DNA of 64,000 bases, from the NCBI RefSeq assembly GCF_013315695.1, contig NZ_CP054353.1. One strand, 5' to 3'. How positions within the stretch are numbered: position 1 is the stretch's first letter; every line of letters starts with the position of its first letter. Under the pieces are notes generated by a model. The model did not search any database and was not told the DNA's origin. It was given only the letters and a program-made list of their open reading frames with translations. Below are positions 15,797-37,561 of this stretch, piece after piece. The translations under genes were made by a program, and so were the position numbers. Origin of the DNA: Escherichia coli (GTDB lineage: Bacteria > Pseudomonadota > Gammaproteobacteria > Enterobacterales > Enterobacteriaceae).

Positions 15797-15906
15797 GCGA
15801 GCAGCATTCCTGATTTTAAACGTGAACGTCGTTGGAAGAATTAACAGGTATAGAATGGCGTTGGGTGCTTGAGGCTGTCTGGCGTTAAGCATTCGCGAGG
15901 TTCCAG

Positions 15907-16008
15907 ATGGACAAAAGCCCCAGGCGATATTTCTATCAACCTGAGGCCAGCGTTCGAACCCAAACAATTCGAATGTTAGTCTCTTCTTTGCAGGGAGGCA
16001 AGACATGC
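15907..16008 (+). CDS. mok-like upstream reading frame, translationally coupled to hok
   Basis: 33-codon ORF ([15 protein letters not shown]...GGKTC) with a GAGG RBS; its TGA stop overlaps the hok ATG (ATGCTGA), the arrangement typical of hok/mok loci. Confidence 0.35.
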
Positions 16009-16157
16009 TGACAAAATATGCCCTTGTGGCAATCATAGTGCTGTGTTTTACAGTACTGGGATTCACGCTGATGGTAGGCGACTCGTTGTGTGAGTTGAGT
16101 ATCAGAGAACGTGGTATGGAGTTTAAGGCGGTTCTCGCTTACGAATCGAAGAAGTAG
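16005..16157 (+). CDS. hokX: Hok/Gef-family type I toxin (50 aa), apparently intact
   Basis: [50 protein letters not shown]: single TM helix followed by the conserved SLCE...AYES motif of Hok/Gef; GGAGG RBS; a GC hairpin (CGCGGGG-GTAAAA-CCCCGCG, 16164-16183) lies just downstream. Symbol by position between cysH and cas3. Confidence 0.7.
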
Positions 16158-25001: not shown

Positions 25002-25213
25002 GTGTTCCCCGCGCCAGCGGGGATAAACCGGCTGGGTACTAGCCAGGGTGAAAGGAAGTCACGTGTTCCCCGCGCCAGCGGGGATAAACCGTCGACAATG
25101 GATAAGTTGACTTCAGGTCTGGGGAGTTCCCCGCGCTAGCGGGAATAAACCGTGCAGTACGCCTGATGACAAACCAGGCATCGGGAGTTCCCCCGCGTCA
25201 GCGGGGAACTCCC
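25002..25213 (+). CRISPR. Type I-E CRISPR array: 4 repeats (29 bp) and 3 spacers (32 bp)
   Basis: Repeats at 25002, 25063, 25124 and 25185 (61-bp period): GTGTTCCCCGCGCCAGCGGGGATAAACCG twice, then GAGTTCCCCGCGCTAGCGGGAATAAACCG, then a degenerate terminal repeat GAGTTCCCCCGCGTCAGCGGGGAACTCCC. Spacers: gctgggtactagccagggtgaaaggaagtcac; tcgacaatggataagttgacttcaggtctggg; tgcagtacgcctgatgacaaaccaggcatcgg. Confidence 0.9.
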
Positions 25214-25233
25214 AGCTCCCATTTTCAAACCCA

Positions 25234-32597: not shown

Positions 32598-33959
<1,362 letters not shown>

Positions 33960-34098
33960 AACGTGAGGAAATACCTGGATTTTTCCTGGTTATTTTGCCG
34001 CAGGTCAGCGTATCGTGAACATCTTTTCCAGTGTTCAGTATGGTGCCTTGCACGGTAATTATGTCACTGGTTATTAACCAATTTTTCCTGGGGGATAA

Positions 34099-35238
34099 AT
34101 GAGCGCGGGAAGCCCAAAATTCACCGTTCGCCGCATTGCGGCTTTGTCACTGGTTTCGCTATGGCTGGCAGGCTGTTCTGACACTTCAAATCCACCGGCC
34201 CCGGTCAGCTCCGTTAATGGCAATGCGCCTGCAAATACCAATTCTGGTATGTTGATTACGCCGCCGCCGAAAATGGGGACGACGTCTACAGCGCAGCAAC
34301 CGCAAATTCAGCCGGTACAGCAGCCACAAATTCAGGCCACTCAACAACCGCAAATCCAGCCGGTGCAGCCAGTAGCTCAGCAGCCGGTACAGATGGAAAA
34401 CGGACGCATCGTCTATAACCGTCAGTATGGGAACATTCCGAAAGGCAGTTATAGCGGCAGTACCTATACAGTGAAAAAAGGCGACACACTTTTCTATATC
34501 GCCTGGATTACTGGCAACGATTTCCGTGACCTTGCTCAGCGCAACAATATTCAGGCACCATACGCGCTGAACGTCGGTCAGACCTTACAGGTGGGGAATG
34601 CTTCCGGTACGCCAATCACTGGCGGAAATGCCATTACCCAGGCCGACGCAGCAGAGCAAGGAGTTGTGATCAAGCCTGCACAAAATTCCACCGTTGCTGT
34701 TGCTTCGCAACCGACAATTACGTATTCTGAGTCTTCGGGTGAACAGAGTGCTAACAAAATGTTGCCGAACAACAAGCCAACTGCGACCACGGTCACAGCG
34801 CCTGTAACGGTACCAACAGCAAGCACAACCGAGCCGACTGTCAGCAGTACATCAACCAGTACGCCTATCTCCACCTGGCGCTGGCCGACTGAGGGCAAAG
34901 TGATCGAAACCTTTGGCGCTTCTGAGGGGGGCAACAAGGGGATTGATATCGCAGGCAGCAAAGGACAGGCAATTATCGCGACTGCAGATGGCCGCGTTGT
35001 TTATGCCGGTAACGCGCTGCGCGGCTACGGTAATCTGATTATCATCAAACATAATGATGATTACCTGAGTGCCTACGCCCATAACGACACAATGCTGGTC
35101 CGGGAACAACAAGAAGTGAAGGCGGGGCAAAAAATAGCAACCATGGGTAGCACCGGAACCAGTTCAACACGCTTGCATTTTGAAATTCGTTACAAGGGGA
35201 AATCCGTAAACCCGCTGCGTTATTTGCCGCAGCGATAA
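34099..35238 (+). CDS. nlpD: Murein hydrolase activator lipoprotein NlpD (LysM plus M23 domains)
   Basis: 379-aa ORF with lipoprotein signal (LAGCS), a Q/P-rich repeat region, a LysM segment and a C-terminal M23 peptidase-like domain. Confidence 0.9.
34285..34395 (+). repeat. In-frame tandem repeat inside nlpD encoding QQPQIQP(V/A) units
   Basis: About 3.5 near-identical 24-nt units (cagcaaccgcaaattcagccggta...) visible directly in the sequence. Confidence 0.5.
34700..34735 (+). promoter_or_regulatory. Major rpoS promoter located inside nlpD
   Basis: TTGCTT-N17-TATTCT (34700-34705 and 34723-34728) places the transcription start about 566 nt upstream of the rpoS ATG, matching the known long rpoS 5' UTR. 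Confidence 0.6.
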
Positions 35239-35300
35239 ATCGGCGGAACCAGGCTTTTGCTTGAATGTTCCGTCAAGGGATCACGGGTAGGAGCCACCTT

Positions 35301-36293
35301 ATGAGTCAGAATACGCTGAAAGTTCATGATTTAAATGAAGATGCGGAATTTGATGAGAACGGAGTTGAGGTTTTTGACGAAAAGGCCTTAGTAGAAGAGG
35401 AACCCAGTGATAACGATTTGGCCGAAGAGGAACTGTTATCGCAGGGAGCCACACAGCGTGTGCTGGACGCGACTCAGCTTTACCTTGGTGAGATTGGTTA
35501 TTCACCACTGTTAACGGCCGAAGAAGAAGTTTATTTTGCGCGTCGCGCACTGCGTGGAGATGTTGCCTCTCGCCGCCGGATGATCGAGAGTAACTTGCGT
35601 CTGGTGGTAAAAATTGCCCGCCGTTATGGCAATCGTGGTCTGGCGTTGCTGGATCTTATCGAAGAGGGCAACCTGGGGCTGATCCGCGCGGTAGAGAAGT
35701 TTGACCCGGAACGTGGTTTCCGCTTCTCAACATACGCAACCTGGTGGATTCGCCAGACGATCGAACGGGCGATTATGAACCAAACCCGTACTATTCGTTT
35801 GCCGATTCACATCGTAAAGGAGCTGAACGTTTACCTGCGAACCGCACGCGAGTTGTCCCATAAACTGGACCATGAACCAAGTGCGGAAGAGATCGCAGAG
35901 CAACTGGATAAGCCAGTTGATGACGTCAGCCGTATGCTTCGTCTTAACGAGCGCATTACCTCGGTAGACACCCCGCTGGGTGGTGATTCCGAAAAAGCGT
36001 TGCTGGACATCCTGGCCGATGAAAAAGAGAACGGTCCGGAAGATACCACGCAAGATGACGATATGAAGCAGAGCATCGTCAAATGGCTGTTCGAGCTGAA
36101 CGCCAAACAGCGTGAAGTGCTGGCACGTCGATTCGGTTTGCTGGGGTACGAAGCGGCAACACTGGAAGATGTAGGTCGTGAAATTGGCCTCACCCGTGAA
36201 CGTGTTCGCCAGATTCAGGTTGAAGGCCTGCGCCGTTTGCGCGAAATCCTGCAAACGCAGGGGCTGAATATCGAAGCGCTGTTCCGCGAGTAA
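35301..36293 (+). CDS. rpoS: RNA polymerase sigma factor RpoS (sigma-S/sigma-38)
   Basis: 330 aa starting [21 protein letters not shown]...; sigma-70 family regions 2-4; the track ORF from 35265 is over-extended. Confidence 0.95.
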
Positions 36294-36413: not shown

Positions 36414-36821
36414 CTATTTGCTCATCATCTTGCGCACCAGCTGCATAAACAGCTCCTGCTCTTCTCCACTCAAACGCCCCAAAAATTCCTCATCCACACT
36501 GTCGCCAATCGGTATCGCCGCAGCAAGTACCTTTTCTCCTTCGGCAGTCAGCCAGACAAAGCGTCGCCGCTTATCAGCGGCGTCATGTTCACGTCTGACT
36601 AAGCCACGATTTTCCATTCTTGCCAACATTTCTGCCAGCGTTGCTTTGGTGCTGACTGCTGCTTCTATCAGTGCCACCTGTTCGATACCAGGCTTATCAG
36701 CAATGGCGCGCATCACCGCGTACTGTGGTTTGGTCAGGTCAGGTAACTCGTGCTGCCAGCGGGCCGTATGCTGCTGAAAAAGCTGTCGTAACTGATGGAA
36801 CGCTTTATTTCGTAACGCCAT
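36414..36821 (-). CDS. hosA: MarR/SlyA-family transcriptional regulator
   Basis: 135-aa ORF with a winged-helix MarR fold (TKPQYAVMRAIADKPGIEQVALIEAAVSTKATLAEMLARMENRGLV); divergent from the decarboxylase genes. Symbol from memory of the E. coli rpoS-mutS variable region. Confidence 0.75.
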   Translation of the reverse strand: MALRNKAFHQLRQLFQQHTARWQHELPDLTKPQYAVMRAIADKPGIEQVALIEAAVSTKATLAEMLARMENRGLVRREHDAADKRRRFVWLTAEGEKVLAAAIPIGDSVDEEFLGRLSGEEQELFMQLVRKMMSK

Positions 36822-36967: not shown

Positions 36968-37561
36968 ATGAAACTGATCGTCGGGATGACAGGGGCTACC
37001 GGTGCGCCTCTTGGTGTGGCATTACTGCAAGCGCTGCGGGAGATGCCGAATGTCGAGACTCATCTGGTGATGTCGACGTGGGCGAAAACCACCATTGAAC
37101 TGGAAACGCCTTACAGCGCTCGCGATGTTGCTGCCCTCGCAGACTTCAGCCATAACTCGGCGGATCAGGCGGCGACCATCTCCTCAGGTTCCTTTCGTAC
37201 CGACGGCATGATCGTTATTCCGTGCAGTATGAAAACGCTCGCCGGTATCCGTGCCGGTTACGCCGATGGCCTGGTAGGGCGCGCGGCGGACGTCGTGCTC
37301 AAAGAAGGCCGCAAACTGGTGCTGGTGCCGCGTGAAATGCCGCTTAGCACCATCCATCTCGAAAATATGCTCGCACTTTCGCGCATGGGCGTGGCGATGG
37401 TGCCGCCGATGCCTGCCTTTTATAACCATCCCGAAACGGTAGATGACATTGTCCAGCACGTGGTAGCCCGCGTGCTGGATCAATTTGGCCTCGAACATCC
37501 TCACGCCAGGCGCTGGCAAGGATTGTCGCAGACCCGGAATTTTTCTCAGGAGAATGAATAA
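36968..37561 (+). CDS. ecdB: UbiX-like flavin prenyltransferase (prenyl-FMN synthase), decarboxylase subunit B
   Basis: 197-aa ORF MKLIVGMTGATGAPLGV... with UbiX/Pad1 flavoprotein signature. Confidence 0.85.
   Translation: MKLIVGMTGATGAPLGVALLQALREMPNVETHLVMSTWAKTTIELETPYSARDVAALADFSHNSADQAATISSGSFRTDGMIVIPCSMKTLAGIRAGYADGLVGRAADVVLKEGRKLVLVPREMPLSTIHLENMLALSRMGVAMVPPMPAFYNHPETVDDIVQHVVARVLDQFGLEHPHARRWQGLSQTRNFSQENE

Follow-up and report, generated by a model that had tools for sequence, protein, structure and literature searches.

The proline-rich region of TonB, the length of Lpp and the linker of RcsF represent extended or low-complexity periplasmic spacers that set the distance from an anchor to a domain, and in all three the dependence on length has been shown by experiment. 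The Gln/Pro-rich repeat of NlpD that is the subject of the current study is like them in its place between anchor and domain, whereas an experimental length dependence belongs to TonB, Lpp and RcsF alone. NlpD is a lipoprotein of the outer membrane and an activator of the amidase AmiC, with a degenerate, non-catalytic LytM active site (PMC5533458). 'Unusual amino acid repeat sequences' were noted in NlpD by Ichikawa, Li, Fu and Clarke (1994, J Bacteriol 176:1630), who were cited by Tidhar et al. (2009, PMC2736372) in their description of a Pro/Gln-rich N-terminal repeat region that is found in Escherichia coli and Salmonella and is absent in Yersinia. Tsang (2017, PMC5533458) named the segment the N-terminal linker and gave it as predicted disordered by DISOPRED. 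With these three reports (Ichikawa 1994, Tidhar 2009, Tsang 2017), the Gln/Pro repeat of NlpD is already published. By the description in citing papers, the array analysed here agrees with the Ichikawa/Tidhar repeat in gene, segment and pcm-nlpD-rpoS locus, and there is no difference in kind.

The closest analogue of the array is the intragenic repeat of tolA, for which 8 to 16 copies were found among 234 strains, with the commonest allele at 66% (Zhou, Michiels and Aertsen 2012, PMC3477136). Contraction of the tolA repeat occurred at a frequency of 6.9e-5 and was largely RecA-dependent, and phenotypes were measured (PMC3477136). The tolA and nlpD repeats are alike in that each is an in-frame coding repeat in an envelope-spanning, spacer-like region of an envelope or cell-division protein, with copies that vary between strains and a copy number that changes through misalignment or recombination. 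They differ in degree: the tolA units are well conserved and highly polymorphic, whereas nlpD has three diverged units, keeps one length in about 98.5% of genomes and changes in steps of 48, 72 and 9 nt. Within nlpD itself, Salmonella Typhimurium UK-1 is described as carrying a 12-bp in-frame deletion (Luo et al. 2012, PMC3391293). Like the nlpD alleles of this study, the deletion keeps the frame and falls in the Q/P-rich linker segment homologous to theirs (CGCCGCAACAAG, part of TPQQA); unlike them, it concerns another species, without a clean array of three 8-residue units, and is a single strain-specific event.

Results

Genomic context and architecture of NlpD

The window, meaning the whole 64-kb stretch of E. 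coli DNA that was analysed, includes the truD-surE-pcm-nlpD-rpoS region according to its open reading frames. The nlpD frame is identified by the gene order pcm, nlpD, rpoS (ORFs and feature tables), by a LysM domain with a LytM/M23 domain C-terminal to it (Pfam) and by a lipoprotein signal at the N-terminus; the window gene is 97–100% identical to the annotated E. coli nlpD in 5,420 RefSeq genomes. Across 15 enterobacterial homologues the NlpD N-terminus is conserved, and A24, G25 and C26 are invariant in 15 of 15. The signal ends in LAGC, which we take, from inspection and from established knowledge of NlpD, to be the lipobox of the protein. The features of the region are as follows, with positions numbered from the first letter of the window.

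34099–34176, plus strand: lipoprotein signal peptide with the lipobox LAGC (Cys26) at its end; translation and homologue alignment
34099–35238, plus strand: coding sequence of nlpD, for a murein hydrolase activator lipoprotein of 379 aa; ORF, Pfam and RefSeq annotation
34177–34443, plus strand: N-terminal linker, aa 27–115, low-complexity and predicted disordered; composition and Tsang 2017
34465–34593, plus strand: LysM domain, aa 123–165; Pfam PF01476, E = 2.7e-12
34933–35214, plus strand: Peptidase_M23 (LytM-type) domain, aa 279–372; Pfam PF01551, E = 4.6e-33
35301–36293, plus strand: rpoS coding sequence, 330 aa; Pfam Sigma70 r1_2, r2, r3 and r4

Anatomy of the repeat

The array spans 99 nt (aa 66–98) between Cys26 and the LysM domain and is a short imperfect minisatellite composed of three 24-nt units and a degenerate tail, bracketed by the conserved anchor sequences AATTCTGGTATGTTGATTACGCC and GGACGCATCGTCTATAACCG. 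Its units, together with the shorter repeats inside it at which length changes occur, are these.

34294–34317, plus strand: unit U1, CAGCAACCGCAAATTCAGCCGGTA, encoding QQPQIQPV; Tandem Repeats Finder and codon reading
34318–34341, plus strand: unit U2, CAGCAGCCACAAATTCAGGCCACT, encoding QQPQIQAT, 17/24 identical to U1 and 15/24 to U3; codon reading
34342–34365, plus strand: unit U3, CAACAACCGCAAATCCAGCCGGTG, encoding QQPQIQPV, 21/24 identical to U1; codon reading
34366–34392, plus strand: degenerate array tail, QPVAQQPVQ; codon reading
34297–34307, plus strand: CAACCGCAAAT in U1, an 11-nt identity with its U3 twin at 34345–34355; where the crossovers of the 48-nt deletion and expansion fall
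34309–34320, plus strand: CAGCCGGTACAG, first copy of a 12-nt repeat whose second copy lies 72 nt away at 34381–34392; endpoints of the 72-nt deletion
34357–34374, plus strand: 9-nt doublet CAGCCGGTG CAGCCAGTA (QPV QPV), reading CAGCC(G/A)GT(G/A); location of the alleles that lose or gain 9 nt

Tandem Repeats Finder reported 34294–34369 with a period of 24, 3.2 copies and a score of 83. A first-pass annotation of the DNA had placed a Gln/Pro tandem repeat in the linker part of nlpD, and it is indeed there, in frame. The details given with it need adjusting: in place of about 3.5 copies of a 24-nt unit there are three full units followed by the degenerate tail, and the proposed consensus QQPQIQP(V/A) describes U1 and U3, both with terminal Val, while U2 ends in AT.

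Similarity within the array is uneven. Adjacent units are identical at only 15–17 of 24 positions (63–71%) as against 21 of 24 (88%) for U1 and U3, and the strong periodicity at the DNA level is therefore 48 nt. Copies 6–120 nt apart with an identity of at least 21/24 exist in three places of the 64-kb window, namely in the nlpD array (at an offset of 48) and twice in a CRISPR array; none was present in any of 30 block-wise shuffles of the window. The nlpD array is a head-to-tail repeat beyond chance.

Length alleles in complete genomes

Length was surveyed in 5,426 complete E. coli genomes, with the region present in 5,420. An initial megablast with a 462-nt query located this stretch in 5,421 genomes, with exactly 462 nt spanned by each row of a spread sample of its matches; its identity bands are blind to indels of 24–72 nt because the alignments split at gaps. 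It was replaced by a gapped blastn search with a 191-nt query, in which 5,343 records had an identity of 95% or above, 14 fell at 90–95%, one at 80–90% and 62 at 60–80%. Alleles were then assigned using synthetic allele queries under strict E-value cut-offs; plain ranking, in which normal alleles aligned in two pieces topped the lists, was rejected.

The 60–80% band is fully accounted for by 61 records of a 48-nt deletion (del48) and one of a 48-nt insertion (ins48). Each of the 61 del48 genomes, which include the O157:H7 strains TW14359, EC4115 and SS17, gave one ungapped match of 143 nt, and the ins48 allele, with five units, belongs to PapRG-04-4, from a baboon. Two genomes, Z142-6 and USMARC-49610, have lost 72 nt and retain one unit (del72); a 9-nt deletion that removes QPV (del9) was found in at least seven, and a 9-nt insertion that adds QPV (ins9) in at least four. 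Loss of a single 24-nt unit was seen in none of the 5,426 complete genomes, and neither was a gain of 24 or 72 nt, the ins48 query, which is able to catch both, having matched one genome only. In-frame length variants hence number at least 75 of 5,420 (about 1.4%), a count that excludes four variant records (three in the 90–95% band and one in the 80–90% band); about 79 of 5,420 genomes (1.4–1.5%) differ in length or otherwise diverge at the array. The same array length is kept in about 98.5% of genomes, and every characterised allele changes length by a multiple of 3 with the frame preserved.

The first-pass annotation had considered the repeat prone to slippage and variable in copy number between strains, and had proposed a comparison across E. 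coli genomes as the check. That comparison reveals that copy number is not identical throughout: at least 75 of 5,420 genomes differ. The expectation thus stands as regards in-frame variation in length, and has to be narrowed in two respects, as the variation is rare (about 1.4%) and never takes 24-nt steps. By the basic definition of a VNTR, namely a length that differs from strain to strain, the array belongs to that class at low frequency, though not through its nominal 24-nt unit, the steps being 48, 72 and 9 nt.

Junctions and recurrence of the length alleles

In five del48 alleles that were sequenced through, the remaining unit carries the CAG of U1 at its start and the C of U3 at unit position 15, and the crossover therefore lies inside the 11-nt CAACCGCAAAT. 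The ins48 allele contains the hybrid unit reciprocal to that of del48. From the alignment, del72 fuses the two copies of CAGCCGGTACAG, and its reciprocal, a duplication of 24 aa, is present in a protein of another E. coli (P0003). One ins9 allele has three perfect copies of CAGCCAGTA. Misalignment between short direct repeats is well known to yield a junction pattern of this kind.

Recurrence was examined in the flanks of the array, over 3,051 bases aligned without gaps. The del48 strain TW14359 and an O157:H7 strain of normal length differ by 0 SNPs across these bases, and the flanks of PK8566 (del48) and 13P460A (ins9) are likewise identical. Five del48 examples are on five haplotypes, 9–37 SNPs apart, with diagnostic SNPs within 3–50 nt of the array; two ins9 alleles, separated by 30 SNPs, have different 9-mers duplicated. 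Given the distinct flanking haplotypes, del48 arose at least four times. The same del48 junction on at least four to five haplotypes suggests that the mutation rate at this site may be raised.

About 28 of the 60 del48 genomes among the matches listed are O157:H7-like as judged by strain name or genome size, and the O157:H7 carriers also include SS52, RM6067W and Argentine isolates. From the strain names, del48 looks like an allele fixed in one O157:H7 sublineage. No report of an nlpD deletion in TW14359, EC4115 or clade 8 was found in the literature searched.

Disorder and conservation of the linker

Pro and Gln together make up a fraction of 0.36 of the linker (aa 27–115) and 0.70 of the array, and disorder-promoting residues constitute 0.78 of the linker. 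An AlphaFold2 model built from a 15-sequence alignment had a mean pLDDT of 36, and its scores for aa 1–117 are uninformative because the M23 domain, too, fell below 50. On the basis of composition and of the statement by Tsang (2017), the array segment is probably intrinsically disordered. The N-terminal linker alone gave weak midcell enrichment in that study (PMC5533458), and the segment may therefore exceed the role of a plain spacer.

Among the 15 enterobacterial homologues, the stretch between conserved motifs that holds the array is the most variable part of NlpD in both sequence and length, ranging from about 15 residues in Citrobacter freundii to about 59 in a divergent Escherichia lineage. 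The latter, at 91% DNA identity to the window, reaches seven units via a perfect 72-nt duplication, and this seven-unit allele is absent among the 5,426 complete E. coli genomes. The NlpD of E. fergusonii has three units too. Three SNPs were seen inside the E. coli array, all of them synonymous. Considered together, these comparisons of sequence point to weak constraint on the array segment of NlpD, with some constraint on sequence possible within E. coli. A single length in about 98.5% of genomes combined with synonymous SNPs could mean purifying selection, as opposed to a low mutation rate.

Position of the array relative to the rpoS promoter

The main rpoS promoter has been located relative to the rpoS start codon, with the −35 element at −601 to −596, the −10 element at −578 to −573 and the transcription start site at −568 to −566 (PMC1852560). 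Transferred to the window, these positions give one further feature.

34700–34735, plus strand: main rpoS promoter inside nlpD, mapped from the positions in PMC1852560, with TTGCTT at 34700–34705, TATTCT at 34723–34728 and the start site at 34733–34735

The array occupies −1007 to −909 from the rpoS start codon. Its end is 308 bp upstream of the −35 element, and it is outside the rpoS 5' leader of about 567 nt, so that it overlaps neither the mapped promoter nor the leader. The suggestion of the first-pass annotation that the repeat overlaps the upstream regulatory region of rpoS finds no support; all that the two share is the long co-transcript of nlpD and rpoS, in which the array lies. The main promoter is described as contained in rpoS complementation fragments that start at −657 (PMC1852560) and therefore exclude the array. 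In Salmonella, the indel in the homologous region was judged to be outside the rpoS promoter region (PMC3391293). A promoter and terminator scan of 33900–35350 returned no promoter-like site and is a weak negative, as even the mapped rpoS promoter was missed. The second linker of NlpD, which overlaps the promoter and the leader, is nearly invariant across genera, in contrast to the array segment, which is the least conserved. Neither the known promoter of rpoS nor its known leader involves the repeat; the regulatory constraint that rpoS places on nlpD falls on the second linker, not on the repeat.

A phase-variable on/off locus was also considered and ruled out: all characterised changes are in frame, and the array is therefore not a phase-variation switch. 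It lies outside the promoter as well.

Discussion

Based on the collective evidence of this study, the array is very probably best understood as the known Gln/Pro repeat of NlpD, part of a tether between the lipid anchor and the LysM/LytM domains, whose length variants arise by misalignment and are near-neutral and which has no role in the promoter or leader known for rpoS. Misalignment during replication or recombination would pair U1 with U3, with the result that 48 nt (16 aa) are gained or lost; alternative pairings would involve the 12-nt repeat 72 nt apart or a slip within the 9-nt doublet. The steps would be of 48 rather than 24 nt because it is only between alternate units that similarity suffices for pairing. 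Such in-frame events may recur independently across lineages and stay rare, with occasional fixation in a clone, as appears to have happened in the O157:H7 group that includes TW14359, EC4115 and SS17. The consequence would be a slightly shorter or longer tether, most likely with a fitness effect that is small or absent. We infer the misalignment mechanism, the near-neutrality of the variants and the spacer role from the pattern of alleles, junctions and conservation described above.

The changes may reflect either RecA-independent slippage or recombination.

Several features of the data could be understood differently, as adaptive tuning of tether length, in which copy number sets the reach of NlpD, lengths are selected by niche and the short allele of O157:H7 has a phenotype. 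The recurrence of the same del48 on at least four to five haplotypes and its presence throughout the approximately 28 O157:H7-like genomes (a count based on strain names and genome sizes) are in line with such tuning, and there is precedent in tolA, whose repeat number alters tolerance to detergent, osmotic stress and phage (PMC3477136); moreover, Tsang (2017) discusses how far NlpD reaches, between outer membrane and peptidoglycan, as a potential control point (PMC5533458). The same authors, however, regard outer-membrane anchoring alone as unlikely to limit reach, given two long unstructured linkers (PMC5533458). One length dominates in nlpD and only about 1.4% of genomes deviate, as compared with the 8–16 copies of tolA and its commonest allele at 66%, and other genera tolerate array segments of very different length and sequence. 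On balance, adaptive tuning is unlikely. By analogy with tolA one might go on to propose that tether length matters in the specific sense of an allele shorter by 16 aa altering the access of NlpD to septal peptidoglycan or to its partners, a proposal that we consider quite improbable. If it were true, the short allele would change cell separation, envelope robustness or colonisation, and nlpD would be a second coding repeat, after tolA, that tunes an envelope machine of E. coli.

A function of the repeat DNA in cis-regulation of rpoS, with copy number altering the level of RpoS, could draw on the fact that transcripts from the nlpD promoters read through the array in the nlpD-rpoS operon (PMC2736372, PMC3391293). 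It is very improbable, though, for an array 308 bp upstream of the −35 element, outside the leader and absent from the −657 fragments, in which no promoter-like motif was found and whose conservation across genera is the lowest in nlpD; the Salmonella authors, too, put the indel of the homologous segment outside the promoter region (PMC3391293). Equally, repeats can mis-assemble, and with ins48 in one genome and del72 in two it may be asked if repeat collapse or expansion in assembly or sequencing produced the length variants as artefacts. Yet the array of 99 nt is shorter than a sequencing read and every record is a complete genome; the del48 junction is identical in 61 genomes from many laboratories, with a coherent O157:H7 group among them; all variants are in frame and at short homologies; and the del48 protein forms a cluster of 191 members (P0008) in an independent protein collection. 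An origin of the variants in artefact is hardly credible in view of this. Near-neutral misalignment in a known spacer repeat is the reading retained here.

Lastly, the nlpD array is an ordinary feature, a VNTR in the basic sense though not by its nominal unit, and the allele census over 5,426 genomes is a small addition to the published repeat, with no such census found in the literature searched. It portrays an array that is stable in about 98.5% of genomes and yet changes length repeatedly and in frame, in steps of 48, 72 and 9 nt and at short homologies that can be predicted. For the engineering or typing of nlpD-rpoS, the length alleles are worth knowing, and del48, being the mark of a group among O157:H7 genomes, might be used as a simple lineage marker.

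Start codon of nlpD

The RefSeq annotation (PGAP) places the nlpD start at a TTG at 34144, which gives a protein of 364 aa, whereas initiation at the ATG at 34099 yields a form of 379 aa, the n-region of which is positively charged. The N-terminal segment of the longer form is conserved in an alignment of 15 enterobacterial homologues and, together with the charged n-region, this favours the ATG over the TTG as the probable start.

Possible deletions and fusions affecting rpoS

Among the NlpD-related proteins collected, a variant of 340 aa (P0030) has 39 aa deleted from the second linker (QPTITY...PTAS, between VAVAS and TTEPT), equivalent to approximately 34708-34825 of the window. Judged by position, the deletion would take out the -10 element (34723-34728) and the start site (34733-34735) of the main rpoS promoter located inside nlpD, and P0030 may thus represent a natural rpoS-promoter deletion. 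Three chimeric proteins are 100% identical to NlpD across 81-85% of its length and are fused to UbiD (P0045, P0092) or Sigma70_r4 (P0087); they look like the products of deletions that have taken out rpoS wholly or partly. In the search of complete E. coli genomes with the nlpD-region query, E. coli O55:H7 DEC5A (H40) lacked a genuine match to the 5' portion of nlpD and showed just a spurious 49-nt hit in flhA, and a further 5 of the 5,426 genomes gave no match whatever to the query. Such genomes may have lost the nlpD-rpoS region by deletion.

RpoS and the segment downstream

The RpoS encoded in the window (35301-36293) carries Glu at residue 33, a known polymorphic position at which K-12 MG1655 has Gln and Glu is the common natural form. 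Two reading frames follow the gene.

36414-36821, minus strand, small ORF downstream of rpoS
36968-37561, ORF downstream of rpoS

The same layout is found downstream of rpoS in a comparison locus from another genome (L014), where the genes are a MarR-family gene, a flavoprotein gene and UbiD. The segment 36414-37561 is presumably the known strain-variable rpoS-mutS segment, in a form that is not K-12-like.

Other elements in the window

15863-16020, plus strand, sok antitoxin RNA (Rfam RF01794, 111 bits, E = 2e-24)
25002-25214, small CRISPR array, 29-nt repeat GTGTTCCCCGCGCCAGCGGGGATAAACCG

The sok RNA is the sole Rfam match reaching the gathering score across the whole 64 kb, implying a putative chromosomal hok/sok-type locus. 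The CRISPR array, which we assume to be of type I-E, comprises three good repeat copies and one degenerate copy, spaced 61-62 nt.

Variation in the NlpD linker

In the O157:H7 linker, CAC replaces AAT about 50 nt upstream of the Gln/Pro-rich repeat (near 34234), changing NlpD by N45H (...GNAPAHTNSG...); the substitution is common to the allele shorter by 48 nt and the normal-length O157:H7 alleles (loci L003 and L009). The NlpD of Salmonella bongori (P0055) has the linker GMLNHTAAKNGNDDAADTATSAANSTCSAPVTQP, differing from that of S. enterica at the same place. The stretch looks like an out-of-frame reading with the frame regained downstream, and could stem from a frameshift that a second one compensates or from an error in sequencing. 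The frameshift, if real, shows how little this segment of the linker is constrained.
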